DNA of 41,342 nucleotides from an uncultured Gammaproteobacteria bacterium (GCA_964365275.1 CAYIOW010000003.1:1-41342), one strand, 5' to 3'. Positions 11,675 through 34,366 are shown, counted from the first letter of the stretch. Made by a program: numbers and translations. Notes: generated from the sequence alone by a model not told the origin.

Positions 11675-11722
11675 AAAAAAAATCGCTCCTCGGCGCGGGG
11701 ATATGACCCGCGTCCGAGGAGC
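11675..11722 (-). terminator. Intrinsic terminator of the large MopE-repeat gene
   Basis: GCTCCTCGG-CGCGGG...CCCGCG-T-CCGAGGAGC stem followed by a T tract on the minus strand. Confidence 0.75.
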
Positions 11723-11736
11723 AGAGGTTCACGCCA

Positions 11737-14700
11737 TCAGGGAGACAACGTGAAGGCGGTCTGGATGTTGCATTCGCCAACGCCGTTCGGAACGGCATCG
11801 GCGGAGACGACCGGGAAGACCGTGGTCCCAATCGTAACGACGGCGGAGGACACCGCGGAGTTCACCGCATATCCTCCGGAGCCATCGGCCACACAGTAGT
11901 AGTCCGTCGGCCCGGGGCCGAACCTGACATTCCACTGCGCGGTATAGCTCCCAGGAGTCGTCGTTCCCAGGTTTGTGGACACGCTCGTCGCCGAGGTCGC
12001 GATTACCGCGTTCGGCGGGAAGGTATTCACATAACCCGGGACCGAGATGTAAAGCTCGAGCGACGGATGAACCGCCGTCGTGCTCCACACGAAGGTGGGC
12101 GGCGCGACCGTGACGGTCGGGGGCGGAGAGGCGCAACCCTCGTCCACCGCCGTGTCACAGTCGTCGTCCACGGAGTTCCCGCACGCCTCGGGGGCGTTCG
12201 GGTAGACGGCGGGGTTCGTTGCCCCGCAGTCAACGACATCGGGGAACAAGTCCCCGTCGTCGTCCGCGTCCGTGCAGTTGGGCTGCCCGTCCGCATCCGT
12301 GTCCGTGAAGCCGTCCACCAGCGACCCGTCGCAGTCGCTGTCCACTCCATCGCACACCTCGGACGCTCCCGTGTACCGGGTTGCGTCCAAGTCGGCGCAG
12401 TCCCCCTGGCACGGGGACATGCCATCCGAGTCGGAGTCCAACTCGGAAGCAGGAACGACTCCGTCGCAGTCGTTGTCCACGCCGTTGCACCCTTCGGGCG
12501 CGCCCGGGTAGCGCGTGGCGTTGCCATCCGCGCAGTCGCCGGAGGCGGGCGTGAACCCGTCTCCGTCAACATCCGAGATAGAGAGACACTGGACCGTCTC
12601 ACCCGTCGCCGGGTTGCAGTCGGTGTCCTGCCCATCGCAGACCTCGGGCGTTCCCGGCCGTACGGCCGGGTTCGCATCGTTGCAGTCGCCGGCGCAGGAC
12701 GAAGTACCGTCCATGTCGGCATCCGCCGGATTCATCAGCGCGTTGTTGTCCGCGCAGTCGCCCTCGCACGGCATCCAGCCGTCCGAGTCGCCATCGGTCT
12801 CGCCATCCGGCGCGAGCCCGTCGCAGTCCTGGTCCACCCCATTGCACGCCTCGGAGGCGTTTGGGTGGATGGCCGGGTCGGCGTCCGCACAGTCAGCGCC
12901 AGAGGCACCTCCCGCGTATCCGTCCCAGTCCACATCGGTCAGGTCCGCACCCGAGCAGTCCTCGTCCACCCCGTTGTATGGGATGTCCGTCGCTCCGGGG
13001 TGGACGCCTGCGAAAGCGTCCGAACAATCGCCTCCCACGGTGGGAAGCGACCCGGTCCAGGGCGAGCACGGCACGAAGCCGTCGCCGTCCTGGTCCAGTT
13101 CAACGGCGGGAACCGACCCGTCGCAGTCGTTGTCCACTCCGTTGCACCCTTCGGGCGCTCCGAGGAAGACCTCCGGCTGAAGGTCGTTGCAGTCGCCCGT
13201 CATGGGCGACCAGCCGTCCCCGTCCTGGTCCAGACCGTTCAGGCAGACCACGAACTCGTCGCTCGTGGTGCCGTCGCAGTCGTCGTCCAGGCCGTTGCAC
13301 ATCTCACTCGCACCCGGATGGATGGCCGGGTTGGTGTCCGGGGAACTCGTGGCGCTGCCGCCACAGTCCCCTCCGCATGCCGTGTAGCCGTCCCCGTCCG
13401 CGTCCGCCGGATTCATCAGCGCGTTGTTGTCCGCGCAGTCGTTTCCGCCGTTCACGGTGGGGTCTCGGCCCACCCAGGACGCGCATGGCACCCAGCCATC
13501 GCCGTCCTGGTCCAGTTCTGCCACGGGCACCGCCCCGTCGCAGTCGTTGTCCGCACCATCGCACACCTCGGGAGCCGCCGGGAAGCGGGCCGAGTCCGCG
13601 TCGTCGCAGTCGCCCTCGCATGCGGACAGCCGATCGCCGTCCATGTCCAACTCCGAGCCCGGCACAGCCAGGTCGCAGTTGTCGTCCATGCCGTTGCATG
13701 TCTCCGGCGCGCCGAGGTAGATGGCGGCATCTGCGTCGTTGCAGTCGCCGGCGGCGGGCGTTTGCCCGTCTCCGTCCTGGTCGAAATACGGCAGACACGA
13801 CACGGGGTTCTCTCCCGTGCCGTCGCAGTTGTCGTCCAGGCCACCGTTGCAAATCTCGGTGGCGGCCGGGTAGATGGCGGCATTGACATCGTTGCAGTCG
13901 CCGCCGCAGAGCGTGATACCGTCCCCATCCGCATCTACCGGGCGGAGGGCGGAGTTGTTGTCGTTGCAGTCGCCCTCGCACGGCATCCAGCCGTCCGAGT
14001 CGCTGTCCTGCTCGTCGTCCGCGACGAGCCCATCGCAGTCCTGGTCCACCTCATCGCACACTTCCGTGGCTCCGGGGTAGACGGACGAGTTGAGCGACGC
14101 GCAGTCGGACGAATCCGCCGCGCCGTCCCCATCGTCGTCCGTGTCCGTGCAGTCGGGTTGGGCGTCAAGATCGTTATTGGCAAAGCCGTCAACGAAGTCG
14201 CCGTCGCAGTCCGAATCCACGAGGTCGCAGGACTCTACCGCACCCGGCCTGATTGCCGGGTCCTGGTCGTCGCAGTCCAGCGGAGAGGACACGAAGTCCC
14301 CGTCCGCATCGCTGTCGCAGGCGTCGCCAAGACCATCCAGGTCCAGGTCAACCTGCGTGGCGTTCGCAACCGCGGGGCAATTGTCACCATCGCAGTTGCG
14401 AAGTCCGTCCAGGTCAAGGTCGCCCTCGCTGGCCGGCACACCGCCGTAGCAATCATCGTTCACCCCGTTGCAGAGCTCGAGGGCGCCGAGGTAGATCGCG
14501 ATGTTGTTGTCGTTGCAGTCGGTACCGCCGACAACGAGGGCATCCTGCCCGTCGCCGTCCGTGTCCGACATGTCAGTTCCCGAACAGTCCTCGTCCACCC
14601 CGTTGTACGGGATTTCGGAGGCGCCCGGGTTGATGGCCGCGTCCGCGTCGTTGCAGTCGGGGTTCCCCCCAAGCAACGCATCCGCGAAGTACCCGTCCCC

Positions 14701-15537
14701 GTCCGCGTCCGTGCAGTTGGGGATGGTCTCGGCGCCGTCGCCGAGTCCGTCGCAGTCATCGTCCACGCCGTTGCAGAACTCCGCCGCTCCCGGGTACACG
14801 GACGAATCCGTGTCGTTGCAATCCAGAGAGATAGGGTCGCACACGGTGAATCCGTCACCGTCCGCATCCCCGGCGTCTCCGACGCCGTCGCAGTTCTCGT
14901 CAACTCCGTCGCACGACTCCACCACACCAGGATGGATGGTCGCGTCCTGGTCGTTGCAGTCGCCTGCGCAGACCATCGCGCCATCGCCGTCCGTGTCCGC
15001 CTCGTTGGACGGCACGGTCCCGTCGCAATCGTTGTCCTGCCCGTCGCACTGCTCGGCGTTCGCGGGGAAGTTCTCCGCGTCCGTGTCATCGCAGTCGCCG
15101 TCCTCGCACTCGTTCGCTCCGTCTCCGTCGTCGTCCGTTTCCACCGAGGAGAGGACGCCGTCGCAGTTGTCGTCCACACCGTCGCAGACCTCCGCGGCAC
15201 CGGGGTGCACGGAGTGGTCGGCGTCGTCGCAGTCGCCCTGCACTTCGGAGAGCCCGTCGCCGTCGTTGTCAACGGTTTCGGGCGAGGGGGTCGTGTCGTC
15301 ATCGCCGGCAGTGTCATCGTCCGCCGTGGTGTCGTCGTCCCCGGGGATGACCGCGTCCGCGCACACTGGCGCGCGGGTGCAGTTCTGGTCCACGCAGTCG
15401 GTCATCCCGTCTGCGTCGTTGTCCCGGGAGTCGTCGCACTCGCCCGGGTTTTTTCCCTCCCAGCTGTCCTGGGTGGGGGGACAGCCCGCCGACACCATGC
15501 CGGCGAGCAGGATGGCCGTGAAGAAGTGGCGGTTCAT
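11737..15537 (-). CDS. GC-rich Asp/Cys-rich lipoprotein with many MopE-related 'putative metal-binding motif' repeats
   Basis: MNRHFFTAILLAGMVSAGC lipobox; repeats of DxDGDG...DCxDxDxxxxPGAxExCxGxDxDCDG; one TSP3-like DNCPAVANATQVD unit; SD AAGGAGGT before ATG 15537. Confidence 0.92.
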   Translation of the reverse strand: MNRHFFTAILLAGMVSAGCPPTQDSWEGKNPGECDDSRDNDADGMTDCVDQNCTRAPVCADAVIPGDDDTTADDDTAGDDDTTPSPETVDNDGDGLSEVQGDCDDADHSVHPGAAEVCDGVDDNCDGVLSSVETDDDGDGANECEDGDCDDTDAENFPANAEQCDGQDNDCDGTVPSNEADTDGDGAMVCAGDCNDQDATIHPGVVESCDGVDENCDGVGDAGDADGDGFTVCDPISLDCNDTDSSVYPGAAEFCNGVDDDCDGLGDGAETIPNCTDADGDGYFADALLGGNPDCNDADAAINPGASEIPYNGVDEDCSGTDMSDTDGDGQDALVVGGTDCNDNNIAIYLGALELCNGVNDDCYGGVPASEGDLDLDGLRNCDGDNCPAVANATQVDLDLDGLGDACDSDADGDFVSSPLDCDDQDPAIRPGAVESCDLVDSDCDGDFVDGFANNDLDAQPDCTDTDDDGDGAADSSDCASLNSSVYPGATEVCDEVDQDCDGLVADDEQDSDSDGWMPCEGDCNDNNSALRPVDADGDGITLCGGDCNDVNAAIYPAATEICNGGLDDNCDGTGENPVSCLPYFDQDGDGQTPAAGDCNDADAAIYLGAPETCNGMDDNCDLAVPGSELDMDGDRLSACEGDCDDADSARFPAAPEVCDGADNDCDGAVPVAELDQDGDGWVPCASWVGRDPTVNGGNDCADNNALMNPADADGDGYTACGGDCGGSATSSPDTNPAIHPGASEMCNGLDDDCDGTTSDEFVVCLNGLDQDGDGWSPMTGDCNDLQPEVFLGAPEGCNGVDNDCDGSVPAVELDQDGDGFVPCSPWTGSLPTVGGDCSDAFAGVHPGATDIPYNGVDEDCSGADLTDVDWDGYAGGASGADCADADPAIHPNASEACNGVDQDCDGLAPDGETDGDSDGWMPCEGDCADNNALMNPADADMDGTSSCAGDCNDANPAVRPGTPEVCDGQDTDCNPATGETVQCLSISDVDGDGFTPASGDCADGNATRYPGAPEGCNGVDNDCDGVVPASELDSDSDGMSPCQGDCADLDATRYTGASEVCDGVDSDCDGSLVDGFTDTDADGQPNCTDADDDGDLFPDVVDCGATNPAVYPNAPEACGNSVDDDCDTAVDEGCASPPPTVTVAPPTFVWSTTAVHPSLELYISVPGYVNTFPPNAVIATSATSVSTNLGTTTPGSYTAQWNVRFGPGPTDYYCVADGSGGYAVNSAVSSAVVTIGTTVFPVVSADAVPNGVGECNIQTAFTLSP

Positions 15538-15721
15538 CGCACACCTCCTTTCAAAAAGTTGAACCTGCTGGCCGGCAGTGCTCAACGGTTGAAGAACGCC
15601 ACAGAAAGTGAGGCCTCCCCCTTGTGGGGCTTTCTATGGCAACCTTGTACGGTTCATAGCCTCTTTTCGGCCTCCTTTTGGCGAAAACAAGCCACGAATT
15701 CAATCTCTCCGATAACGCCCA

Positions 15722-15750
15722 ACCTTCTCAAAAAAATTGAGTTTTGTCAA
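15722..15750 (-). promoter_or_regulatory. Promoter TTGACA-N14-TGA-GAAGGT
   Basis: Same spacing and shape as the promoters at 21125, 22925, 30514 and 31702. Confidence 0.55.
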
Positions 15751-15770
15751 ATGTTTACGATTGGCTGTGG

Positions 15771-15804
15771 ATGTGGATAAAAGGGTCAGACCCCTTTATC
15801 CACA
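15771..15804. repeat. Family B palindrome bracketed by two DnaA-box 9-mers
   Basis: ATGTGGATAAAAGGGTCAGACCCCTTTATCCACA, identical to 35725-35758. Confidence 0.9.
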
Positions 15805-15814
15805 CCCTGCCTAC

Positions 15815-15863
15815 AAAAAAACCGGCGGGCGTGGGAGGAGTAGAACCTCACCACGGCCACCGG
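15815..15863 (-). terminator. Intrinsic terminator of the second MopE-repeat gene
   Basis: CCGG..CGTGG-GAGG/CCTC-CCACG..CCGG imperfect stem followed by T7 on the minus strand. Confidence 0.7.
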
Positions 15864-15868
15864 AAGAG

Positions 15869-18175
15869 TTACGGGTCCAGGCGTTCAACCAGAAACTGGT
15901 CGTAGAGCGTGATACTCATCGGCTGTTGCCATTCGCTTGTCACGAACAGCCAGTCCCTTACACCCGTGTTTCGTGCCTCCAAATATAACTCATAGTCCAT
16001 CTGCGTCTGCACCGCTCGCCTCAAGGACGGGTATGAAGTGTCCAAGAAGGTCGCGATGAACGCCGCAGACGAGACCGTGCTCGTTGGCGTTGGCACGAAG
16101 GTCAGGAACATCGCGACATTCGGGTTCCCGGTCCAGCTCATCGTGAAGCTGAAGAGGAGGCATTGCCCGGCAGTGGTAGACCATTGCGCCCAGTTCGTGG
16201 TGAGCGCATTGGACCCGAAGGTCGCGGGCGAGTTGTCCACGAAGGTCATGGTGTGCGCCACGGTATCCACCGTGATGCTCGTATCCACCGTTGGGGTACC
16301 GAGCCACCTTCCAACCTGCGTGAAGTCGTCCACCCACAACGACACCGCCGTAGTGCTCCTGAACGCCGCACCCATATCCGAGCAACCCTGAAGACAGTAC
16401 GACCCGCTTCCCGGAAAGTTCGCCGGGTCATTGTCGTCGCAGTCCCCATACGAGTCGCAGGTGTACGGGTCGGCTTCCTGCCCGCCGCCGTCGCAGAACC
16501 CGTCTCCGTCGTCGTCCGTATTGCAGGACGAACCGCCGGACGGAATGTTTGCGACATTGGTGCAGTTGTTCACTGCGCCGTCTCCACACACCTCAACGGC
16601 GCCCGGATAGCGGTCTTCGTTCGTGTCGTCGCAGTCGCCTTCGCACAGCATCCAGCCGTCCGCATCCGCGTCCGCTTCGTTCGCGGCAGGGCTTCCCGAA
16701 CAGTCGTCGTCAAGGGCGTTGCACACCTCAACGGCACCCGGGTGAACTGCCGAATCCGTGTCGGCGCAGTCGCCCTCGCAGACCATCCAGTTGTCTGAGT
16801 CCGCATCAACTTCGGTCACCAAAGGCGAACCGGAGCAGTCGTCGTCCACGGCGTTGCAGAGTTCGGTGGCTCCTGGGTAAATGGACAAGTCCGCGTCTGC
16901 GCAGTCGCCTTCGCAGACCATCCAGCCGTCCGTGTCCGCATCCACTTCATTCGCGGCAGGGCTTCCCGAACAGTCGTCGTCAAGGGCGTTGCACACCTCA
17001 ACGGCACCCGGGTGAACTGCCGAATCCGTGTCGGCGCAGTCGCCCTCGCAGACCATCCAGTTGTCTGAGTCCGCATCAACTTCGGTCACCAAAGGCGAAC
17101 CGGAGCAGTCGTCGTCCACGGCGTTGCAGAGTTCGGTGGCTCCTGGGTAAATGGACAAGTCCGCGTCTGCGCAGTCGCCTTCGCAGACCATCCAGCCGTC
17201 CGTGTCCGCATCCACTTCATCAATGCCCGAAGCGCCTGAACAGTCATTGTCCTGTCCATCGCATGACTCTGCGTTCCCCGGGAAGTTCCAAGGGTCGGCA
17301 TCATCACACTCCGAACAGGCGAGAACTCCATCCGTGTCCGCATCAACTTCGGTCACCAAAGGCGAACCGGAGCAGTCGTCGTCAAGGGCGTTGCAGAGTT
17401 CGGTTGCGCCCGGGTAGGCCGTAGCGTTCGCGTCATTGCAGTCAACGCAAGCGAGCGAACCGTCTCCGTCCACATCCGACTCGTTTCCGAGTCCATCGCA
17501 TGCGGAATCCACTCCGTCGCAGAACTCGGGAGCCGCCGGAAAGCGACTCGCGTTTCCGTCGTCACAGTCGCCGGCGTTTTCGGAGAACCCATCTCCGTCG
17601 TCGTCCACATCCAACGGGTCAGTCGGCGTTACGGTGTCGTCGTCTCCGATTGGGGTTGTGTCGTCGTCCCCTGGCGGAGTCGTTGCGTCGTCATCGCCCG
17701 GAAGCGAAGAGTCGTCGTCCCCAGGAATGGCGCTGTCGTCGTCGCCCGGAGTCGCCGAGTCATCATCTCCCGAATCGTCGTCGCCACTGTCGTCGTCCGC
17801 CACCGTGATGTCATCGTCCCCCGAAGGAGTCGTGGCATCATCATCTCCGGAATCATCGTCCGCGACCGTAGTGTCGTCGTCATCAACGGGCGTCGTGTCG
17901 TCGTCACCACTGTCATCATCGTCTGGAATCACCGTGTCGTCGTCAGACGAGTCATCGTCATTCGGTGTTACGCTGTCATCATCTCCGGAGTCATCGTCCG
18001 GAGTGATTGCGTCATCATCGCCACTGTCGTCATCCGCCGTAGTATCGTCGTCAACGACATTAGTGTCGTCATCACCAACAATACGGTTCCACCACCCGGA
18101 GAAGCCGTACGGAATCTCCGCACAACCACAGAAGAAAACCATCAGGCCAACAAAGGCCAACCAGAACTTGTTCAT
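15869..18175 (-). CDS. GC-rich lipoprotein with poly-Asp (DDDSGDDD) linker, MopE-related repeats and a C-terminal beta-rich domain
   Basis: MNKFWLAFVGLMVFFCGC lipobox; DDD-S/T tracts; DCADxDxxxxPGAxExCNxxDDDC repeats; SD GGAGG. Confidence 0.92.
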   Translation of the reverse strand: MNKFWLAFVGLMVFFCGCAEIPYGFSGWWNRIVGDDDTNVVDDDTTADDDSGDDDAITPDDDSGDDDSVTPNDDDSSDDDTVIPDDDDSGDDDTTPVDDDDTTVADDDSGDDDATTPSGDDDITVADDDSGDDDSGDDDSATPGDDDSAIPGDDDSSLPGDDDATTPPGDDDTTPIGDDDTVTPTDPLDVDDDGDGFSENAGDCDDGNASRFPAAPEFCDGVDSACDGLGNESDVDGDGSLACVDCNDANATAYPGATELCNALDDDCSGSPLVTEVDADTDGVLACSECDDADPWNFPGNAESCDGQDNDCSGASGIDEVDADTDGWMVCEGDCADADLSIYPGATELCNAVDDDCSGSPLVTEVDADSDNWMVCEGDCADTDSAVHPGAVEVCNALDDDCSGSPAANEVDADTDGWMVCEGDCADADLSIYPGATELCNAVDDDCSGSPLVTEVDADSDNWMVCEGDCADTDSAVHPGAVEVCNALDDDCSGSPAANEADADADGWMLCEGDCDDTNEDRYPGAVEVCGDGAVNNCTNVANIPSGGSSCNTDDDGDGFCDGGGQEADPYTCDSYGDCDDNDPANFPGSGSYCLQGCSDMGAAFRSTTAVSLWVDDFTQVGRWLGTPTVDTSITVDTVAHTMTFVDNSPATFGSNALTTNWAQWSTTAGQCLLFSFTMSWTGNPNVAMFLTFVPTPTSTVSSAAFIATFLDTSYPSLRRAVQTQMDYELYLEARNTGVRDWLFVTSEWQQPMSITLYDQFLVERLDP
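16680..17220. repeat. 270-bp tandem duplication (two identical 90-aa units)
   Basis: 16681-16950 is repeated at 16951-17220. Confidence 0.9.
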
Positions 18176-18224
18176 CGCGTCCTCCGAGGGGCTCTGCCCC
18201 GTATTCTGTTATGTGTTGAGTTCA

Positions 18225-18254
18225 GTAACTTTTTCGTACCTACGAAAAAGTTAC
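18225..18254. promoter_or_regulatory. 30-bp palindrome of family C in the leader of the 768-aa gene
   Basis: GTAACTTTTTCGTA-CC-TACGAAAAAGTTAC, with perfect 14-bp arms. Confidence 0.75.
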
Positions 18255-18574
18255 ACAGTGTTAGGTCGCCTTAAGTTTCGGCGGACACCACGTCTCGCCT
18301 AGCGCTTACGCGACCAATCTTGTTTGAGTTGTAATGAACTTTACAGACGCGAAAGCCGCGCTGAAGACAGTCCCCTTCGTCTTCAATTCGCCTTTCACAA
18401 TGACAATACCTTTTTTCTGTTATTTTGCAATACCATATAACTAATAATAAAATTTTCTCAAACGATTGGGCCTAGAGTTATTACACCATTTATGCGCGTA
18501 AACAATTTGTAATTAGTGCATTGCGAGCCACAAGATATTTAAGTAATTTTACAGAACAAAGACACAATGACAAA

Positions 18575-18619
18575 AATATAACTGACCACTTTTTTCGTAG
18601 GTACGGAAAAAGTGGTCAA
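18575..18619. repeat. 45-bp direct repeat, left copy (family C palindrome)
   Basis: 44/45 identical to 19399-19443; contains the stop codon of the PaaX-like gene. Confidence 0.92.
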
Positions 18620-19194
18620 AACGGTTTTGCTGAAAAAACCGAAATTAATGCTCCGAGTTTATTTTTTATTATCCATTTATTGAACAGAATGCCAACATCG
18701 GTTTTTGTATACCATACACTTTGTTGTAATCGCAAAAATCCGCTTCCCTTTAATAGGTGTCTTATTTTGTCTCTGAGATGATTGTTCACGGTTGGTATGT
18801 CAAAAACCACCACGCATATCATGCCATTGGGTAATAGTGTTTTCGTAGCACGAATCCGCTCCCGCAGAGCTCTTAATCTTCCTTCGTCTGTAAGCGCGAT
18901 CCGCAGTTGATTTCCATTTTTCTCTATTCTAATCAGGCGTTTTCTCTTCAAATAACTAATCGTACGAATATGCTCAAAATATAAATCCCAATATTGACCA
19001 TCCTCCGTATACGGACGCAGTAAGGATTTCCGTGGGCTATAAAACGGCAAACCGTCTCTTCGTTCTTCTACCATCTCAACAATCTCTAATAACACCTGAC
19101 CAACCTTTGTTTTTGGTTTTCTTATATTCCTCCAAGCAAACATATGTGCGCGCGTCAGTTCCCTCCTCGTGAGCCGTATCTTTGTTGTTGACAT
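18616..19194 (-). CDS. PaaX-family protein (wHTH plus Cas2-like domain), CPR type
   Basis: YLKRKRLI...LTDEGR wHTH end; VVVFDIP...RDKIRHLLKGSGFLRLQQSVW Cas2-like motif; lower GC than its neighbours. Confidence 0.88.
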   Translation of the reverse strand: MSTTKIRLTRRELTRAHMFAWRNIRKPKTKVGQVLLEIVEMVEERRDGLPFYSPRKSLLRPYTEDGQYWDLYFEHIRTISYLKRKRLIRIEKNGNQLRIALTDEGRLRALRERIRATKTLLPNGMICVVVFDIPTVNNHLRDKIRHLLKGSGFLRLQQSVWYTKTDVGILFNKWIIKNKLGALISVFSAKPF

Positions 19195-19267
19195 AACAAA
19201 AACAAAATCGCGAATAAGAACGATTTTGTCCGGTGGGGACGGGACGAAAATTGTAATAAGCATTGTA

Positions 19268-19299: not shown

Positions 19300-19398
19300 T
19301 GTCAAGAGTATGGTGGGGATAAGTGAAGAGTAAGGTAGAGAAAAGTTTTTTGCATGAGTGATAAGACGCAGCGATGAGACGCGAAGAGCAATGCCAAT

Positions 19399-19578: not shown

Positions 19579-19623
19579 AAAACGAACGAGACCCCCACGC
19601 ATAGACGATGCGTGGGGGTCTCG
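19579..19623 (-). terminator. Probable terminator of the 396-aa gene
   Basis: Perfect 16-bp stem CGAGACCCCCACGCAT/ATGCGTGGGGGTCTCG followed by TTCGTTTT on the minus strand. Confidence 0.7.
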
Positions 19624-19751: not shown

Positions 19752-20942
19752 CTACTGGCGCTTGCACCAGAAGTCGTTGTTCCCGACGGCTCCCCACCGG
19801 CATGTGCCGGGGGAGACATCGGGCCACGAACTCGTTGCCGAGCTCGTGGAGCGGGAACGGGTGAGCGGGTAGCTCACCCCGCCGACGGTGAGCGAACTCA
19901 CCCTGTCGGCGGTCCCGGTCACGAGGAATCCCCCCGCGACCGTGCCGTTGACGCTGAACCTGTCCCCCGACGACAGGGGGACCGACCCGCAGGAAAGGGT
20001 CGTCCCCCCGGTACCGCTTGCGCAGTACTCGGGGGATGACAACCCCCACCAGGACCCGGACCACTGCGTCCAGTTGAAGACCCGGAGGTCCCAACTGCCA
20101 GATGACGAGGAATCTCTCGTCACCTGGACGGTGTTCCCGGTGGGGGGGCTGCACCCCTCATCCACGGTCCCGTCGCAGTCGTCGTCCACGCTGTTGCAGG
20201 TCTCGGTTGCCCCCGGGTAGACGGCGCTGTTGCCGTCGTTGCAGTCGGCGGAGTCCGGCGAACCGTCTCCGTCGCTGTCCACCGCGGGGGCGGTGGTGTC
20301 GTCATCGTCGTCCGCGGGGGTCGTGTCATCGTCGTCCGCCGTTGCGTCGTCGTCATCCCCTTCGCCGGGGAGGACTCCGTCGCAGTCGTTGTCCACTCCG
20401 TCGCCCCAGATGTCGGGGGCGCCGGGGTGAACCGACGGGTTCGTCTCGTCGCAGTCCCCGGCGTAGCCGGGGGACGAACCGTCCCAGCAGACGAGACGGC
20501 AGTAGCCGTCCCCGTCGTGGTCCACCCGGCCGTCGCAGGCCGGGGACCACTCGCAGTCGGAGTCGGCGCAGTCGTAGTCGCCGTCTCCGTCGTTGTCCGC
20601 CTCGTCCGAGCAGCCGAACTGCTGCTCGTTCTCGTCGTCCACCGGGGGGGCGGTGGTGTCGTCGTCATCGTCCGCGGGGGTCGTGTCGTCATCCGCGGTG
20701 TCATCGTCGGTCGTGTCGTCGTCGGCGGGGTTGCACCCGCCGAACCCGGCGCAGTCCGGGTCGTCGCAGTCGAACCAGCCGTCGCCGTCGTTGTCGGCGG
20801 CATCCGCGCAGTTCTCGCCGACGACGACATCGTCGGGAGGGCCCTGGTCGCACGATGCGACCAGGAGAAAACAAACTGCCGTGAACCACACAGCGAGGCC
20901 ACCCCGGAGGGCGGAGGTGAGAAGGGGGCGGGGATCGCCCAT
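19752..20942 (-). CDS. GC-rich lipoprotein with poly-Asp linkers and MopE-related repeats
   Basis: CFLLVASC lipobox; CADAADNDGDGWFDCDDPDC and DCNDGNSAVYPGATETCNSVDDDCDG repeats; SD-like GGAG. Confidence 0.9.
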   Translation of the reverse strand: MGDPRPLLTSALRGGLAVWFTAVCFLLVASCDQGPPDDVVVGENCADAADNDGDGWFDCDDPDCAGFGGCNPADDDTTDDDTADDDTTPADDDDDTTAPPVDDENEQQFGCSDEADNDGDGDYDCADSDCEWSPACDGRVDHDGDGYCRLVCWDGSSPGYAGDCDETNPSVHPGAPDIWGDGVDNDCDGVLPGEGDDDDATADDDDTTPADDDDDTTAPAVDSDGDGSPDSADCNDGNSAVYPGATETCNSVDDDCDGTVDEGCSPPTGNTVQVTRDSSSSGSWDLRVFNWTQWSGSWWGLSSPEYCASGTGGTTLSCGSVPLSSGDRFSVNGTVAGGFLVTGTADRVSSLTVGGVSYPLTRSRSTSSATSSWPDVSPGTCRWGAVGNNDFWCKRQ

Positions 20943-21022
20943 TTTTCGTCTCCACCGGCAATACCCTGCCGGAGCGGGACCTTGGCGGAAATGCCTCGGA
21001 AATCTGTTTTCTTCTACTTATT

Positions 21023-21062
21023 GTCATACCCCTCCTATCCTCCCCTGTTTAGGGGAGGGAAA
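21023..21062. repeat. REP-like family A copy inside the leader of the 396-aa gene
   Basis: GTCATACCCCTCCTATCCTCCCCTGTTTAGGGGAGGGAAA. Confidence 0.9.
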
Positions 21063-21124
21063 CATAGAAAAAAGCATATTTCCGGGCACTTCGCCGAGGT
21101 TTTGCACCTTGTAAAGGACTTACG

Positions 21125-21153
21125 AACTTATCAGAAAAATGAAAAAGTGTCAA
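21125..21153 (-). promoter_or_regulatory. Promoter TTGACA-N14-TGA-TAAGTT
   Basis: The -35 and the extended -10 (TGATAAGTTCG) are identical to those at 22925-22953. Confidence 0.75.
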
Positions 21154-21183
21154 GCGGCGAATGGCTTAATATCGCCTTTGCTC

Positions 21184-21251
21184 GTCATTGCGAACGCAGT
21201 GAAGCAATCTCAGAGACAATTAAGAGATTGCCGCGCTTCGCTCGCAATGAC
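21184..21251. repeat. RPE-like palindromic element (GTCATTGCGA...GCAATCTC / GAGATTGC...TCGCAATGAC)
   Basis: Nested inverted repeats matching the widespread GTCATTGCGAG-type palindromic element. Confidence 0.8.
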
Positions 21252-21292
21252 AAGCAAAAATGACTAAAACTATGGATATAACGGTAGGAATC

Positions 21293-21332
21293 GTCATACC
21301 CCACCTAACCTCCCCTATATAGGGGAGGAAAA
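21293..21332. repeat. REP-like family A copy
   Basis: GTCATACCCCACCTAACCTCCCCTATATAGGGGAGGAAAA. Confidence 0.9.
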
Positions 21333-21346
21333 TAGTGAAGTGAATT

Positions 21347-21390
21347 AAAAAAAGGAAGAGCGCGGCCCGGGAGAAACCCAGACCGCGCTC
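21347..21390 (-). terminator. Intrinsic terminator of the collagen-like gene
   Basis: GAGCGCGG/CCGCGCTC stem followed by TTCCTTTTTTT on the minus strand. Confidence 0.7.
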
Positions 21391-21450
21391 ATTGCTGAAC
21401 CTCACCTCTCCGAAGTCCCACAGTGCGTGGGGTGGAGAGGTGGGGAAAAC

Positions 21451-22680: not shown

Positions 22681-22924
22681 TTCTGCGTCCTCCAGTTCCC
22701 CGCCGGAGGCGGGGCGACGCTTTTTTCAGCGTCCTTTTGAATTCCCGGCCGGATAGAACGGCCATTGTTTCGCGCGCCGGCACAATACCGGCGCAACGAG
22801 ATTGTACAGAGCAGAGGCCTTTCGGCTATGCCCTTCCAAGGCACGATTGCCAATGAACACAAGGAGGGTGTGTTCCGGCTATCGCGCCATGCAAGGGCAC
22901 AATTTCAGACCTTTCCGACCCGCG

Positions 22925-23222: not shown

Positions 23223-23242
23223 AAGCGTTTAACAAATAATTA

Positions 23243-23887
23243 TTATGCGTGCAAAAAGCGGTGGCGTTCCGCTTCAATGTGTGAGCGAAGGAGTACGAAC
23301 GCGCCGCCCGCCAAAGCGCCAATCACTAAACCGACAAAAGCATTCGCCGGAATGTTCGGGCGAACCGGATAACGCGACACCAGCGGGTTGTCAACCAAGC
23401 GAACTGAAATGTTTCCGCCGGAAGTGTAGCGCCAACCCTGTTGAGTCAGCACAAACGCAATCGCTTCAGAAATCAGTTTTGCCTGTTCCGGACTATGGTT
23501 GTAAACACTCACGGACAAAAGCCCGGTGCCGCGCGCAACGCTTGTGCCTATCATTTTATTCCAAATCTTTCTTCGCTTCGCCGGCTTCGCGTCCGCGGAC
23601 GGAAATTGCGCTTCGTTCACCCCGAAACGGGATTGAAGCACCTGGTCAAAAAAAGTGGTGGTGTAAACAATTTGCGCCAAATCATCCGCAACCCGTTCCG
23701 CGCTACGACTCGCCGAATATGCGTCGGACGATATGGATTCCTGCGTAATCAGCAGACGGATGGACGAGCTGTATTCAAGGGGTCTGATAAAACTCAAAGC
23801 AACGCCAAGTAAAAGTCCGCACACGGCAAAAACACCAACCATGCCGACATGTCGGACCAATAACGCCATTGCTCTTTGAGAGGTCAT
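23243..23887 (-). CDS. Wzz/CpsC-like polysaccharide chain-length determinant
   Basis: Two terminal TMs; PLEYSSSIRLLI and PVRPNIPANAFVGLVIG motifs. Confidence 0.85.
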   Translation of the reverse strand: MTSQRAMALLVRHVGMVGVFAVCGLLLGVALSFIRPLEYSSSIRLLITQESISSDAYSASRSAERVADDLAQIVYTTTFFDQVLQSRFGVNEAQFPSADAKPAKRRKIWNKMIGTSVARGTGLLSVSVYNHSPEQAKLISEAIAFVLTQQGWRYTSGGNISVRLVDNPLVSRYPVRPNIPANAFVGLVIGALAGGAFVLLRSHIEAERHRFLHA

Positions 23888-24001
23888 TGGGAAGTATTGT
23901 GAAGTATGAAGTATTTGGTATTCCGCCAGAGGCGGACAACGGTTGGTATTTTGGGAGTGCTTACAGATGACGACAACTACCACCCTTACACAAAATACAT
24001 C

Positions 24002-30260: not shown

Positions 30261-30280
30261 CTGAATCCTGATACTGTACA

Positions 30281-30335
30281 GACGCCCAACATGTCCCGCT
30301 TCTCGCGAGAGGCGGGATGGGGGCATCTTTGTTTT
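30281..30335 (+). terminator. Terminator of infC-rpmI-rplT
   Basis: GACGCCC...TCCCGCTTCTC-GC-GAGAGGCGGGA...GGGCATC stem followed by TTTGTTTT. Confidence 0.7.
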
Positions 30336-30366
30336 GACCAGCAAAATATAATCCGGAAATGCACTT

Positions 30367-30488
30367 CACCCCACCTTCCGCCAAAGGCGGATCCGCCTCG
30401 GGAGGAAACCTCCCCTGCGAGGGGAGGGAATTAATAAAGCGACATGGTTCATAGTTCCCTCCCCTGTAAGGGGAGGATGGGAGGGGTA
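30367..30488. repeat. Inverted doublet of family A with a nested 30-bp family D insertion
   Basis: CCCCACCT[TCCGCCAAAGGCGGA TCCGCCTCGGGAGGA]AACCTCCCCTGCGAGGGGAGG, then an inverted copy at 30455-30488. Confidence 0.85.
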
Positions 30489-30513
30489 AAGCCCATTAAC
30501 ACATCATCATGCG

Positions 30514-30542
30514 TTGACGAAAGCGCAAATGAGCGATAATGT
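30514..30542 (+). promoter_or_regulatory. Promoter TTGACG-N17-TAATGT
   Basis: sigma70 spacing, upstream of 30601. Confidence 0.6.
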
Positions 30543-30600
30543 TTCGGCGGACGGGGACAATGTATCCACAGCCCGTTAAAGACAACGGGAGGAGAATGAG

Positions 30601-31554
30601 ATGAGTAACGACACGAGTACGCCCGGACTGCCGGGACTGGGAGCGCGACCGACAGTAACGCTCTCAAGAGGTGATATTGACGCAATCGCCGCCGCGCTGT
30701 TGAAGACAACTCGCTTCGGCGGAATGATTGGCTCCGCTATCGCAGAACGAACAGACGCCGGCGTAGACGCTCTAGTTGAGCAGGCGGGACAACGAGTGCT
30801 CGCCGCGGCTCAAGGAGTCGCGGATGCGACAGCAAGGGACGCGGCAACGAGGGCTCGAGTAGAGTTTAACCGCGAGGCGGTCAAGCTGAACAACGACGCC
30901 GAGAAGCGCGTGAACGCGCTTGGCGGACTCGTTGCAAGCAAAATGCTGGAAGGACGAAAGGAAGCACGACGACGGTTCTGGCTGTTCTGCGCGAGCTTCG
31001 CCGGAATCTTCGCAGTCGCTGCGGCAATCTTCATCGCCTGGACTTTCGCCATGAATGGCAGGGTTCAGAAGAGCGAAGAGAAGCTCGCAAACGCCGAAGA
31101 ACGAATGAGTACGATTGCAGACGGCGCGGCGCGAATCGCTGTGGACGCAAAGATGCAACCGCTCACCGAGCGCGTTGACGCAATCGCGAGGAACGTGAAC
31201 GAACAGCGCGAGTTGCTGAACACGCACACCGGCGAGATTGCCGAACTTCAAGACGAAGACGCTTCGCTCGCGAAAAAGCTCGGTGCCATTCTGAACCGGC
31301 TTGACGCGTTCGGCCAACGGCTTTTCACGGAAGAAAGCGTAACCGCCGCCATCTCCTCGGACTTCGTCCCGAGCGGAATGGACAACGCGGCGAACTCACG
31401 ACTCTGCCGTGAACAGGAGCCGAAGAGGAAGACGGACGACGGCGCGGACATCCTGAAGTGCAGAGATGGCATCAACGGCAAAGGGTATACACTCGCTTGC
31501 CGTCCGTCGCCTGCTGGCTGGACAAACTGCCGCGCGCATCTAACCACCCAATAG
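30601..31554 (+). CDS. Bitopic coiled-coil membrane protein with a C-terminal four-Cys domain
   Basis: RRRFW followed by a TM; heptad-rich segments; SD GGAGGAG; higher GC than the backbone. Confidence 0.85.
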   Translation: MSNDTSTPGLPGLGARPTVTLSRGDIDAIAAALLKTTRFGGMIGSAIAERTDAGVDALVEQAGQRVLAAAQGVADATARDAATRARVEFNREAVKLNNDAEKRVNALGGLVASKMLEGRKEARRRFWLFCASFAGIFAVAAAIFIAWTFAMNGRVQKSEEKLANAEERMSTIADGAARIAVDAKMQPLTERVDAIARNVNEQRELLNTHTGEIAELQDEDASLAKKLGAILNRLDAFGQRLFTEESVTAAISSDFVPSGMDNAANSRLCREQEPKRKTDDGADILKCRDGINGKGYTLACRPSPAGWTNCRAHLTTQ

Positions 31555-31597
31555 GGAACTCCCGAAGGGTGTGTTTTTTATATACGAATAACATTAA

Positions 31598-31686
31598 ATT
31601 ACACAGGGAATACGCAGGAATACACAAGAATTAAAAGCAATTAACTTCAATGCTACACATATATTTCTGCGTATTCCCTGTGTAAT
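31598..31686. repeat. Inverted-repeat element with 20-bp perfect arms (family E)
   Basis: ATTACACAGGGAATACGCAG / CTGCGTATTCCCTGTGTAAT; related sequence at 8375-8408. Confidence 0.8.
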
Positions 31687-31701
31687 CCTTTTCCCATCCG
31701 T

Positions 31702-31730
31702 TTGACAAATAGACAATTTTTTGATAAAAA
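31702..31730 (+). promoter_or_regulatory. Promoter TTGACA-N14-TGA-TAAAAA
   Basis: Same layout as the promoters of the other GC-rich genes. Confidence 0.65.
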
Positions 31731-31816
31731 TCCCAGTCCTGCACATTTGCAGGCAAGTTCCCCGGCAACACCGGAAAGCCCCGCATTCCGCGGGCAAAAA
31801 GCGCCTTTGGCGCAGT

Positions 31817-31873
31817 ATTCCGCCTCTGGCGGAAACATTCCGCCTCTGGCGGAAACATTCCGCCTCTGGCGGA
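31817..31873. repeat. Three tandem 20-bp units containing palindrome TCCGCCTCTGGCGGA (family D)
   Basis: Palindromes at 31819, 31839 and 31859, directly before the SD. Confidence 0.9.
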
Positions 31874-31887
31874 GAAAGGAGGCGGCA

Positions 31888-34284
31888 ATGTCCGCCAAGA
31901 AGAACAGGGGCGCCAAGCGCCCCAACCACACCGCCACCGGCAGAGCAATGCCGGCGGCTCCCCCACCCTCCCCCGACAACACCGACGCCCCGTTGGCAGG
32001 GTCGTCGGAGAGCATCGCGCCCGTCGCCGGCCCCGAGCCGAAGACGGACGAGACCGGTGGCGGGATGCCCGACTCCGGTCCCGTCGCCAATCAGGGCGAC
32101 GAGGCCGAGAAGCCCGAGGACAAGTTCTTCGGAGCCGGAAGCGGTCTCGCTTCTACCGACCCCCTCCCGACCATCGGGTCAGAGGGAGCGGAGAAGAAGA
32201 CAGCGGACGAGCCCGAGGATAAGAAGTCGGGAGAACCCGGCTCCTCGTCCGCAACTGACGACCCCGAGACGGAGTGCTGTCTCTGCGGACACAAAGCCCC
32301 GCGGAGCCAGATGAAGCCGAGCCCCAGTGGCATGTTCTGGTGGTGCAAGGAGACAGAGCAGTGCTTCTCCCGGCAGCGGCACAGCAGGAACATGAGGACC
32401 GCGAACGCGGCGGCGGCTCCCCCACCCTCCTCCGACAACACCGACGCCCCGTTGGCAGGGTCGTCGGAGAGCATCGCGCCCGTCGCCGGCCCCGAGCCGA
32501 AGACGGACGAGACCGGTGGCGGGATGCCCGACTCCGGTCCCGTCGCCAATCAGGGCGACGAGGACAAGAAGTCGGGCGAGGCCACGGCCGAAACGCCGAA
32601 GGGCGCCGAGATCGTGGAGACGAAGTCGGGAGAACCCGGCTCCTCGTCCGCCACGCCGGACCCCATCGGGACCGGCGTCAAAGACGGACAGATGCGGGAC
32701 ACCCCCGCTTCCGAACCGTCCTCGGTTGCCGGCGAGGGTGAACAGCCCAAGCCCAACGCCGAGACGCCGTCCACTGTGGATGACCCGGAGGAAGAGTGTT
32801 TACATTGCCGGATGAAAGCCAAACGAAGCAGCATGGTACCCATCGCGCCTTCGTCTGCCATCATCAAGTGTGCCGACAGCGAGGCATGCGATATGAGGAG
32901 TCAGGCGCAGCGTAAAGCTGGGATGGAGTGGACCACCACCGGGTGGCAGAAGAAGCCGCCGGCAGTTCCACCTCCCCCCGCGGACGCGACGGCTTCCCAG
33001 CCACCCACGCAGAGGATGGCACCTTCGGTCGTTCCGGAACCCACCCCGGGTCCAGCGCCGAAGACGGACACGGTTCCTTCTCCCGCCATCCCATTGGGAG
33101 ACGAGAGCGGGAAGCCGGGCGAGGCCACGGCCGAAGCGCCGAAGGGCGACAAGACCGTGGAGACGAAGCCGGAAGAACCCGGCATCTCGTCGGAGACACC
33201 GGACCCCATCGGGACCGGCGTCAAAGACGGACAGATGCGGGACACCCCCGCTTCCGAACCGTCCTCGGTTGCTGGCGAGGGCAAACAGCCCAAGCCCAAC
33301 GCCGAGGCGCCGCCCACCGCGGATGACCCGGAGGTGGAGTGCTTCAACTGCTGGGTGAAAGCCAAACGAAGCAGCATGGTACCCTTTTTGACCTCGTCTA
33401 CCCGCCTCATCTGTGCCTACAGCGAGGCATGCAATGAGAGGTATCACGCGCAAAGTGAAGCTGGGATGAAATGGACCGACACCGGGTGGAAGAAGAAGCC
33501 GCCGGCAGTTCTCCCTTCCCTCGCGGACGCGGCGGCTTCCCAGCCGTCCCCGCAGAAGACGGCACCTCCGGCCGTTCCGGAACCCGTCCAAGGCCCCGAG
33601 CCGAAGACGGACACGGTTCCTTCTCCCGCCATCCCATTGGGAGACGAGAGCGGGAAGCCTGGCAAGACCGAGATCGTGAAGACGAAGTCGCAGGCAGTTC
33701 TCCCTCCCCCCGCGGCCGCGGCGGCTTCCCAGCCGTCCCCGCCAGCGCAGAGGACGACGCCTCCTCCGGCGGTCGTTCCCGCCCCCGCTCCTCGTCCGGC
33801 GCCCGCTCCACAGCGGAGCGAGCCCAAGCCGGAGGAGAAGAGCGACGGTCCGCTCCTCTCCAAGAGCGAGGTCACCGCCCTGTCCAAGGCGGTGGAGAAT
33901 GACAAGAGAATGGCGCCTCCGGCCACTCTCGCTCCCAACTGGAAGCGGGTGGCACTCGTGGCGGCTGCGCTGCTCGCCCTCGTCCTCCTGACGGTGGTGA
34001 TGTCCATCGCAGTGGACGAGTGGTCCACCACGAAGACCGCGAGCCCCTCGGGGCCGTGCGTTGTTCTCGCCATCACCGATGTGGTGGTGGAGAAGAACGA
34101 GGTGCGGTGGCGGTGCCACCAGCAGGCGGAGGGTGGCAAACTGCAGGCCACAATGACCTGCAGCGAGCTCGGGCCATACATCTGGCCCGACCGCGCTCCC
34201 TTCACGGGAGACGGGGGCTTTGCCTCCGTGCCGGACCTCAAGTCCTGCCGTCCCCTCCAGAAGAAGACCGCCTCCAACAAGTAG
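31888..34284 (+). CDS. GC-rich Pro/Ser/Glu-rich bitopic protein with three CxxC...C-x5-C modules, internal duplications and a C-terminal four-Cys domain
   Basis: SD AAGGAGG before ATG 31888; duplications with periods of 459 and 543 bp; TM WKRVALVAAALLALVLLTVVMSIAV. Confidence 0.85.
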   Translation: MSAKKNRGAKRPNHTATGRAMPAAPPPSPDNTDAPLAGSSESIAPVAGPEPKTDETGGGMPDSGPVANQGDEAEKPEDKFFGAGSGLASTDPLPTIGSEGAEKKTADEPEDKKSGEPGSSSATDDPETECCLCGHKAPRSQMKPSPSGMFWWCKETEQCFSRQRHSRNMRTANAAAAPPPSSDNTDAPLAGSSESIAPVAGPEPKTDETGGGMPDSGPVANQGDEDKKSGEATAETPKGAEIVETKSGEPGSSSATPDPIGTGVKDGQMRDTPASEPSSVAGEGEQPKPNAETPSTVDDPEEECLHCRMKAKRSSMVPIAPSSAIIKCADSEACDMRSQAQRKAGMEWTTTGWQKKPPAVPPPPADATASQPPTQRMAPSVVPEPTPGPAPKTDTVPSPAIPLGDESGKPGEATAEAPKGDKTVETKPEEPGISSETPDPIGTGVKDGQMRDTPASEPSSVAGEGKQPKPNAEAPPTADDPEVECFNCWVKAKRSSMVPFLTSSTRLICAYSEACNERYHAQSEAGMKWTDTGWKKKPPAVLPSLADAAASQPSPQKTAPPAVPEPVQGPEPKTDTVPSPAIPLGDESGKPGKTEIVKTKSQAVLPPPAAAAASQPSPPAQRTTPPPAVVPAPAPRPAPAPQRSEPKPEEKSDGPLLSKSEVTALSKAVENDKRMAPPATLAPNWKRVALVAAALLALVLLTVVMSIAVDEWSTTKTASPSGPCVVLAITDVVVEKNEVRWRCHQQAEGGKLQATMTCSELGPYIWPDRAPFTGDGGFASVPDLKSCRPLQKKTASNK

Positions 34285-34330
34285 AGGAGACGGCAAGCGT
34301 GTAGCGGCGCGTCTTCCGCTACGAAAACAA

Positions 34331-34366
34331 GACCCCGGCATCCTATCTGGAGCGGGGTCGTTTTTT
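34331..34366 (+). terminator. Intrinsic terminator
   Basis: GACCCCG...CGGGGTC stem followed by GTTTTTT. Confidence 0.72.

Follow-up and report, generated by a model that had tools for sequence, protein, structure and literature searches.

GC-rich, Shine-Dalgarno-led envelope genes in a Candidatus Uhrbacteria genome with largely Shine-Dalgarno-free starts: recent imports or an inherited class?

Can a genome that begins nearly all of its genes without a Shine-Dalgarno (SD) sequence maintain a native class of genes that depend on one, or must such genes be recent arrivals? The question is raised by the window, by which we mean the whole 41,342-nt stretch analysed here (CAYIOW010000003.1 of assembly GCA_964365275.1), in which six conspicuously GC-rich genes, each led by an SD, stand among genes of ordinary composition: three encode MopE-type repeat proteins (P0001, P0002 and P0003, or MopE1, MopE2 and MopE3), the other three the proteins P0004, P0005 and P0006. 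The window is the whole of contig C3 in a 59-contig metagenome bin from groundwater (G000; 828 kb, 98.6% complete by marker genes), whose lineage is Candidatus Uhrbacteria, of the Candidate Phyla Radiation (CPR). An earlier note, made from the sequence alone, had proposed either repeated gene capture from a GC-rich diderm host or a class of genes kept in the host's codon and SD dialect. We favor, with a probability of about 0.55, a different answer, that the six genes represent a lineage-wide, inherited class of stand-alone, SD-dependent, GC-rich envelope genes in an SD-independent genome.

As to composition, the six genes have a GC content of 0.60-0.69 and a GC content at third codon positions (GC3) of 0.66-0.88 (Table 1), in agreement with the earlier description of them as GC-richer than the backbone, for which GC3 is approximately 0.50, the remaining open reading frames (ORFs) of the window ranging from 0.32 to 0.63. 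GC1 and GC2 are also raised, and a sliding GC plot reveals blocks of 60-70% at 11.7-18.2, 19.7-21.0, 21.4-22.7, 30.6-31.5, and 31.9-34.3 kb, over a background of 40-53%. The codon shift extends to every amino acid and to codons ending in G as well as in C, with the ATA codon at 0% versus 27% in the backbone, and amino-acid usage is GC-shifted as well. The SD strings previously reported were found before all six genes at the positions given, 5-8 nt upstream of the ATG, with predicted anti-SD pairing as listed in Table 1. With respect to the core genes described as lacking an SD, the upstream strings of rplT, infC, smpB, and ftsZ are as quoted, while the start of pyk is called differently here.

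The same division runs through the genome. ORFs and starts were taken from our own simple ORF caller (837 ORFs in G000), and the SD was scored in ORFs of at least 120 codons as GGAG, GAGG, or AGGA at positions -17 to -4, versus a control window. GC3 in G000 peaks mainly at 0.45-0.55, and 42 of the 837 ORFs form a tail at 0.65 or above. When GC3 and SD are computed gene by gene, as had been suggested, the tail turns out to be SD-led (64.7% of 34 high-GC3 ORFs versus 11.8% in the control), and the low-GC3 mass remains at the control level (8.1% versus 8.9%, n = 606), so SDs are not common before core genes elsewhere in this genome. An anti-SD duplex of -8 kcal/mol or better is predicted for 7% of the low-GC3 and 53% of the high-GC3 ORFs. 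In 420 kb of G014, a single-contig genome from another family, the SD is present in 7.5% of 253 low-GC3 ORFs (control 5.9%) versus 73% of 30 high-GC3 ORFs; the respective values for 16 other Uhrbacteria loci are 8.5% of 164 (control 3.0%) and 66.7% of 30. The 16S rRNA 3' end, another item the earlier note had proposed to read, ends in GATCACCTCCTTT, the canonical anti-SD, in all six full-length genes from relatives; these relatives thus retain the anti-SD that some Parcubacteria are reported to be without (PMC9297842).

The backbone genes carry start signals of a different kind. G is depleted upstream of their starts, and T occupies position -1 at 343 of 548 ATG starts in G000 (62%), 181 of 253 in G014 (72%), and 98 of 164 in the other loci (60%), the operon-internal genes being no exception (152 of 223; examples in the window are at 27407, 29916, and 39128-40381), while T at -1 is rare in the GC-rich ORFs (4 of 30 in G014 and 3 of 30 in the other loci). 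U at -1 is known to favor initiation via pairing with A37 of the initiator tRNA (PMC10018350), and the backbone T at -1 fits such quadruplet pairing. In addition, TANNNT begins at positions -15 to -12 with counts of 46, 35, 28, and 49 (158 among 606 ORFs), versus 5-19 per position elsewhere, often with TG just before the box, and the same peaks are seen in G014. Such -10-like boxes, 12-15 nt before the ATG, suggest that leaderless or near-leaderless backbone mRNAs may be widespread in Uhrbacteria.

What unites the GC-rich genes, beyond composition, is the type of product and the type of leader. In a scan combining a regular expression with hydropathy, a lipobox was recognized in 8 of 30 high-GC3 ORFs of G000 (including P0001 and P0002) versus 11 of 597 low-GC3 ORFs (p 5e-7), in 4 of 30 versus 2 of 253 in G014, and in 9 of 30 versus 4 of 164 in the other loci, and the high-GC3 ORFs with a lipobox are all SD-led. 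Relatives with a GC-rich backbone are especially informative: their overall SD use is low (15.9% of 220 ORFs versus 10% in the control), and a lipobox is found in 10 of 35 SD-led ORFs versus 4 of 185 ORFs without an SD, indicating that the SD belongs to the gene class and not to a donor. Backbone GC varies widely within the Uhrbacteria group, and the link between SD and lipoproteins persists. The genome also encodes Lgt (PF01790, 153 bits, C46:1060-1755) and LspA (PF01252, 54.5 bits, C4:18448-18843), so that lipoproteins can be processed at home. The second of the earlier proposals therefore survives in part, as a gene class with its own codons and SD, in a deep CPR clade that stays GC-rich (the criterion that the earlier note itself had set), but its idea of a host's dialect is unsupported, as Lgt and LspA are encoded and the SD follows the class. 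As for the claim that all six products are envelope proteins, it holds best for P0001-P0003, which combine a lipobox (...AGMVSAGC, ...VFFCGC, and ...LLVASC, respectively) and poly-Asp linkers with PF11617 matches of 487 bits (19 stretches, E 6.5e-150), 228 bits (8, 9e-69), and 72 bits (2, 4.6e-20), over a cut-off of 27; P0004 has a signal-peptide-like N-terminus, and P0005 and P0006 show, by eye, one hydrophobic segment each. No PF11617 match was obtained for P0004-P0006, nor any Pfam family for P0005 and P0006, and most class members beyond those named here likewise have no Pfam family.

At least 80 nt of intergenic sequence precede 24 of 28 high-GC3 ORFs, versus 37% of 563 low-GC3 ORFs, supporting the stand-alone layout that had been claimed, from which monocistronic transcription may be surmised. 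The leaders are structured, as was also claimed, all six 150-nt leaders folding better than shuffled sequences (z -2.0 to -5.3). Among class genes, the SD is immediately preceded by a hairpin in 9 of 20 cases in G000 (shuffles 2.7 +/- 1.5) versus 60 of 597 backbone genes, in 9 of 22 cases in G014, in 6 of 20 in the other loci, and in five of the six window genes. Folding of the start region is -14.8 kcal/mol in the class versus -8.4 in the backbone (p 5e-8), and such far more structured start regions offer a simple reason why the class would need an SD and the backbone would not. Other elements ascribed to the six genes fared less well. Strong terminator-like hairpins follow only MopE3 (19623-19587) and P0004 (21390-21358), not the other four, and the total of terminator-like sites is not above that in shuffled sequences (32 versus 27.4 +/- 5); promoter-like sites were found upstream of two of the six (MopE2 and P0006); and a search for a promoter motif shared across the class returned only weak k-mers (GAACCTC, 4 of 24 versus 5 of 211; CCTCTGG, 4 of 24 versus 0 of 211).

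The class also extends across the order, judging from its distribution. PF11617 repeats are present in 36 of 40 relatives (genomes of the same order, 0.6-1.2 Mb) and in all seven families sampled; phylum-wide they were detected in only 7 of 301 genomes at a strict E of 1e-13, and in at least five genomes outside the order. In eleven loci fetched, the PF11617 ORFs have GC3 of 0.77-0.95, several with an AAGGAGG-type SD before lipoprotein N-termini. One example of conserved position is the gene order GHL15/FG-GAP, DUF11, GT4, Wzy-like, and GC-rich MopE gene(s), kept in G001, G002, and G006, of the same family as G000, and in G014, with identities of 46-60% for the backbone neighbors and 35-45% for the MopE genes. 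A further 33 Wzy loci had sufficient flanking sequence; moderately-GC genomes account for 16 of them, 13 of these having a GC-rich MopE ORF directly upstream of Wzy; in the other 17 (among L066-L098) the whole backbone is GC-rich, with Wzy GC3 of 0.70-0.97. Another example is a non-repeat gene for an M23-peptidase lipoprotein (GC3 0.73 in G000 and 0.75 in G014), located directly upstream of the same five-gene backbone block (GC3 0.41-0.54) in both genomes. More generally, GC3 correlates between best-match pairs of G014 and G000 (r = 0.52, 154 pairs). With proteins diverged to 35-45% identity or beyond recognition, synonymous sites must have turned over many times, and GC3 values of 0.7-0.9 would thus be near a local equilibrium rather than a leftover of import. 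In sum, the genome holds two dialects, conserved order-wide, at least two families of the GC-rich class are inherited vertically and in synteny, no outside donor turned up among the sequences sampled, and the GC excess is limited to coding sequences (CDS); we infer a functional need for the SD, and selection acting on the CDS or the mRNA as the force that maintains the composition.

The following picture would accommodate these data. The class, mostly lipoproteins and many of them with poly-Asp and MopE repeats, is written in a dialect of GC-rich codons within the CDS, preceded by a long structured leader, often with a GC hairpin, and then an SD 5-8 nt before the ATG, while the rest of the genome relies on SD-free starts in A/T-rich, unstructured regions with U at -1 and often a -10-like box. 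The ribosome would keep the canonical anti-SD, as read in relatives. GC-rich, structured mRNAs would be shut out of the structure-free entry route used by the backbone and would depend on pairing of SD with anti-SD, and this dependence could render the class separately controllable at the level of translation, and perhaps of mRNA lifetime, through the hairpin-SD module at the 5' end.

A number of points weigh against this reading. The 16S gene of G000 was not found in its assembly, and the anti-SD was read from relatives only; among the runs found to contain window sequence there was no RNA run; and about one third of the high-GC3 ORFs have no SD and may be spurious, all starts coming from the simple ORF caller. 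Classical translational selection, a bias toward high expression, was considered and rejected, as EF-Tu, EF-G, and seven ribosomal protein genes have the GC3 of the backbone (0.37-0.56), eight of the nine being without an SD; the GC-rich codon usage may stem from selection on mRNA or codons, from exchange among CPR, or from biased conversion. The MopE "orthologs," repetitive as they are and only 35-45% identical, may represent replacements at a conserved site, and the terminal domains of P0001-P0003 returned, in 65 related loci, two marginal matches and one at 1e-4; the C-terminal domain of MopE1 is weakly conserved in the syntenic gene of G001 (32% identity over 132 aa, E 1e-4). Only 7 of 30 high-GC3 ORFs of G014 have a match in G000, versus 167 of 253 low-GC3 ORFs; most of the class is thus lineage-specific, as would suit surface proteins that evolve fast, but gene flux would fit as well. 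Finally, a PNP_UDP phosphorylase gene on contig C43, GC-rich (GC3 0.79) and SD-led, is 83-85% identical to Magasanikbacteria proteins, versus approximately 50-60% for between-family backbone neighbors, which may mean exchange among CPR.

Exchange of this kind is the alternative that survives best, even if we consider it unlikely: cassettes would be traded among Uhrbacteria and related CPR and swapped at conserved surface loci, with the GC-rich-backbone lineages as the likely source. Such lineages do exist, as the 17 GC-rich Wzy loci demonstrate, and their codon usage resembles that of the class (CTC > CTG; r 0.94-0.95). Exchange would also suit the fast turnover of content seen in G014, and G002 carries different GC-rich ORFs between the same borders. 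However, the putative source lineages are not generally SD-led, and the SD marks lipoproteins there too; the flanks of the cassettes are native, with GC near that of the backbone; not even CPR yielded relatives of P0004, P0005, and P0006; and syntenic orthologs are GC-rich in both families.

Less probable still is an origin in local mutation, in which GC-biased gene conversion would have enriched repeat-rich surface genes, the SD being a secondary adaptation to the structured mRNA. Four of the six genes do contain internal repeats: the MopE arrays have a 120-nt unit in 16 copies, MopE2 has 270-nt repeats 96% identical, P0006 has repeated CxxC modules with an internal 543-nt repeat (87% identity, within 32553-33395), and P0004 has a collagen repeat (PF01391, residues 164-218, 36 bits over a cut-off of 27.2); surface genes are, moreover, plausible hot spots of recombination. 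Against this, conversion tracts would be expected to run across CDS borders, yet that is where the GC excess ends: GC is 0.62 in the CDS of the class versus 0.477 in those of the backbone, and 0.487 in intergenic DNA beside class genes versus 0.443 elsewhere, arguing against regional mutational bias and against unameliorated imports alike. The non-repetitive M23 lipoprotein, PNP_UDP, and P0005 genes are GC-rich too, and MopE2, with the most recent repeats, has a GC3 below those of MopE1 and MopE3.

PF11617 proteins are common in Myxococcota, and the atypical composition, extending over all amino acids, G- and C-ending codons, and amino-acid usage, could be taken for the imprint of a GC-rich non-CPR host or neighbor (Myxococcota, for example), with the SD and codons of the donor still visible after repeated recent capture. 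We regard such capture, the first of the earlier proposals, as highly improbable. For three of the six genes, nothing resembling a donor homolog came out of the searches: P0004 had only collagen-repeat matches, over 11-20% of its length, among 5.8 billion proteins; P0005 had only a self-match in the large protein database search and only sub-threshold rows in the ESM Atlas (0.81; TM approximately 0.2); and P0006 had itself and one marginal match among 1.84 billion representatives. PNP_UDP has 511 homologs, and of the 11 named matches among the 120 listed, 10 are from CPR (Magasanikbacteria, Uhrbacteria, Vogelbacteria, Patescibacteria, and Parcubacteria) and one is a plain "bacterium," at identities of 62-92% among the matches listed. 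Near-identical donor copies, which the earlier note had named as a sign of simple recent transfer, were thus not found in the searches with these four. The PF11617 genes occur, furthermore, at a syntenic site as does the M23 gene, the GC excess ends at the CDS borders, and the CTC > CTG usage of the class is that of GC-rich CPR. The flanks also appear native. A REP-like palindrome, CCTCCCCT-N3-4-AGGGGAGG, occurs 51 times in the genome, with 44 intergenic copies and 14 copies lying within the window (at 1967, 6491, 8278, 8321, 21039, 21309, 23144, 23192, 30409, 30458, 34396, 34500, 34604, and 35022), beside backbone and GC-rich genes alike, indicating that the cassettes sit in native intergenic DNA. 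The palindrome pairs an SD-like arm with an anti-SD-like arm, and five tandem 52-nt units are found at 34396-34655. No integrase or transposase was seen among the 26 window ORFs scanned, and an integron-like cassette array was rejected as well, the genes being scattered rather than packed and no integrase being seen.

For this window, as far as contigs can tell, an assembly or binning chimera can be dismissed as next to impossible: although this is a 59-contig metagenome bin with two wholly GC-rich small contigs (C52 and C53), depth is even over 14700-34699 in contigs of four runs, drawn from three studies, individual contigs bridge the GC-rich/backbone borders (21411-23806, 18589-19857, 30513-31846, and 17354-18612) and so support the junctions that the earlier note had wanted checked, the same arrangement is present in a single-contig genome and dozens of independent assemblies, and at least nine composition switches would be needed in one contig. 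Depth spikes and false "joints" in public contigs are due to the palindromic repeat. C52 and C53 (GC 0.64 and 0.58 throughout), with Fe-S/oxidoreductase-like and IS21-like ORFs by eye, may be bin contaminants; their CTG > CTC usage is unlike that of the class.

One feature that would be consistent with a host-directed product, and also with capture from a diderm, concerns P0004. Its C-terminal 188 aa (222-409; 21451-22017) are predicted to resemble 8-stranded outer membrane protein (OMP) barrels, with an ESM Atlas feature score of 0.91 and, for a model of low confidence (pLDDT 0.47), TM of 0.63-0.79 against clusters of OMP barrels, and the genome has no match to Omp85/BamA (PF01103), a search that was positive in seven control genomes (E. 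coli, Caulobacter, Synechococcus, Thermus, Deinococcus, Bacteroides, and Thermotoga). An AlphaFold model made without an alignment was unusable (pLDDT 35.6); the sequence ends in W and shows a modest beta-amphipathic periodicity (z 2.3, a value that 8 of 500 shuffled sequences attained); residues 222-409 had no Pfam match even at E 10 and no relevant PDB sequence match; PF13505 was not found in G000; the class has no clear excess of proteins ending in an aromatic residue (4 of 20 versus 48 of 597); and P0004 was found only in G000, not in the 40 relatives searched. The barrel-like appearance is an unconfirmed oddity, a lead and the sole hint toward a host-directed product.

Returning to the inherited SD-led class, the closest parallel is found in Bacteroidia, in which bS21, bS18, and bS6 mask an anti-SD that the 16S rRNA retains, and rpsU, with a strong SD, is translated by ribosomes without bS21 (PMC9976891; PMC7797042). 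The likeness extends to the genome-wide absence of SDs despite a canonical 16S anti-SD (PMC7797042, PMC9976891), to A/T-rich, unstructured start regions, and to a small minority of genes with a strong SD. A divergent bS21-like gene is present in G000 (C14:17612-17857, minus strand; 22.3 bits on PF01165, below the 27-bit cut-off), preceded by a promoter-like TTGACG-17-TACAAT and, 5 nt from its ATG, by GAGGTGA. Homologs occur in 38 of 40 relatives, with an SD in the scoring window of 14 of 30 inspected, versus approximately 8% of backbone genes; several of these SDs are extended, e.g., AAAGGAGGGTGA, and other relatives have none. The parallel is incomplete, as the pairing of the G000 gene (-11.8 kcal/mol) is weaker than that given for Bacteroidia rpsU (< -13 kcal/mol, PMC9976891), the SD-led set here is a whole class (approximately 20 of 627 longer ORFs), in a CPR phylum, versus essentially one gene in Bacteroidia, and the backbone here has U at -1 and -10-like boxes near the ATG, versus upstream adenines there. 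The analogy suggests, but does not show, that a special state of the ribosome translates the SD-led genes. A bolder version, in which ribosomes indifferent or blind to the SD would serve the leaderless backbone with U at -1 and a subpopulation, such as one without bS21, would serve a surface-lipoprotein regulon, with P0004 as a collagen-stalked barrel produced by a cell that has no BAM and placed in the outer membrane of a diderm host, is a long shot; were it true, the host-contact surface would be remodeled through ribosome composition rather than through transcription.

Other known systems share some of the features. The leaders recall the STAB-SD elements of Bacillus, a 5' stem-loop with a strong SD that stabilizes mRNAs, in having a hairpin directly 5' of a strong SD (in 30-45% of the class), the 5'-terminal position here being only putative. 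As in genomic islands, the GC is atypical, the accessory content turns over, and the functions are surface-related; unlike in islands, no mobility genes were found among the scanned ORFs and no donor in the searches made, the flanks are native, the sites conserved, the genes scattered singly, and the class composition stays atypical over deep divergence. The SD-less, partly leaderless-looking native genes plus an atypical minority that needs a separate model resemble classes recognized by GeneMarkS-2 (PMC6028130), where "atypical genes" are usually read as recent imports; here, position and composition of the class are both maintained across families, and the class has an initiation signal of its own and a coherent function, that of lipoproteins. 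Similarly, the lgr genes of Protochlamydia amoebophila (PMC2216083) are large repeat-protein genes, GC-richer than the symbiont chromosome and without full-length homologs elsewhere, but they form one recently duplicated leucine-rich repeat family in one species, and the portion of the account available describes no separate initiation signal or order-wide conservation. P0001-P0003, in turn, match MopE-type "putative metal-binding motif" proteins (PF11617), here with poly-Asp linkers and end domains that appear fast-evolving and lineage-specific. In the literature searched, from which supplementary per-genome ribosome-binding-site statistics (e.g., PMC9297842) were outside the scope, no account came to light of CPR possessing a class of GC-rich, SD-led genes.

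CPR make up a large share of bacterial diversity, and gene expression in them is almost unstudied. SD-independent initiation for approximately 95% of genes, together with a conserved SD-dependent surface class, would explain why an anti-SD is retained in a genome that hardly uses SDs, and would make these bacteria a second, independent lineage for testing the specialized-ribosome idea from Bacteroidia. It would also flag likely host-contact proteins (the poly-Asp/MopE lipoproteins and fast-evolving ORFans). In practical terms, native genes of such bins will be lost by mistake when contamination filters or composition-based calls of horizontal gene transfer are applied, and a gene finder that has only one model of the start will get one of the two classes wrong.

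The features of the window are collected in Table 1. Its backbone genes include those for SmpB, IF3, pyruvate kinase, FtsZ, an ECF sigma factor, glycosyltransferases, and the Wzy_C-like protein, along with such CPR-typical oddities as a 23S-IVS protein and a DUF559 protein, and the closest matches found with the Wzy-like protein are loci of Candidatus Uhrbacteria, Patescibacteria, and Parcubacteria. One third-party assembly series labels many contigs with CPR-type loci as "uncultured Gammaproteobacteria bacterium," which looks like a labeling default and not a taxonomic finding.

Table 1. Coordinates of the GC-rich genes, their leaders, and neighboring features in the window.
Feature	Coordinates	Strand	GC3	Predicted anti-SD pairing (kcal/mol)	Description
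Wzy_C-like membrane protein	10085..11623	-	0.49		Backbone; conserved anchor beside GC-rich MopE genes
MopE1 (P0001)	11737..15537	-	0.84		1266-aa lipoprotein; 19 PF11617 repeats; adjoins Wzy-like gene as in relatives
MopE1 leader/intergenic	15538..15868	-		-15.8	SD AAGGAGGT at 15543-15550; spacer 5; fold z -2.0; GC 0.51
MopE2 (P0002)	15869..18175	-	0.71		768-aa lipoprotein; poly-Asp region; 8 PF11617 repeats
MopE2 leader	18176..18615	-		-9.5	SD GGAGG at 18181-18185; z -3.3; promoter-like site 18573-18546
Terminator-like hairpin after MopE3	19587..19623	-			16 pairs, 11 GC; T tail
MopE3 (P0003)	19752..20942	-	0.88		396-aa lipoprotein-like protein; 2 PF11617 repeats
MopE3 leader	20943..21450	-		-7.1	Hairpin, then SD GGAG at 20950-20953; z -5.3
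P0004	21451..22680	-	0.79		409 aa; signal-peptide-like N-terminus; collagen repeat
P0004 leader	22681..22852	-		-9.3	Hairpin CCCCGCC-TCC-GGCGGGG, then SD GGAGG at 22689-22693; z -4.7
GNVR-domain protein	23243..23983	-			Backbone; conserved far border of first GC-rich cluster; 69% identical in G002
P0005 leader	30261..30600	+		-11.0	Native palindromes 30409, 30458; hairpin; SD GGAGGAG at 30588-30594; z -2.2
P0005	30601..31554	+	0.66		317 aa; one hydrophobic segment; strict ORFan
P0006 leader	31555..31887	+		-12.7	25-nt inverted repeat 31598-31686; promoter-like 31702-31731; SD AAGGAGG at 31876-31882; z -4.5
P0006	31888..34284	+	0.79		798 aa; Pro/Ala-rich; hydrophobic segment near C-terminus; ORFan

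Some details of the leaders may be added. The hairpin directly 5' of the SD of MopE2 is a GC hairpin at 18188-18200, and the MopE3 leader region also contains the native palindromes at 21039 and 21309 and the terminator-like hairpin of P0004. The P0006 leader (31738-31887) has three copies of a 20-nt hairpin unit, CCGCCTCTGGCGG, and its hairpin-SD junction is near-identical to the one before an unrelated GC-rich ORF, C13:12856. Elsewhere in the genome, C1:15684-16586 and C7:5085-6404 are GC-rich lipoprotein paralogs with identical signal peptides and a near-identical 90-nt leader with the SD, indicating that leader and gene were duplicated together.

As to the tRNA complement, the 47 tRNA genes of G000, many with G34 and C34 anticodons, fit both dialects and decide nothing. 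No tRNA gene for Ala-UGC or Pro-UGG is among them, though GCA and CCA codons are used; the missing genes may lie within the unassembled rRNA region.

One further observation concerns an AT-rich ORF at 18616-19263 (GC3 0.38, PaaX_M/Cas2-like) that is wedged between two GC-rich genes and framed by palindromes of 34-36 nt (18581-18618, 19269-19302, and 19405-19442). Its homolog in G014 (L039:656-1198) is likewise located 2.6 kb from a GC-rich lipoprotein gene.

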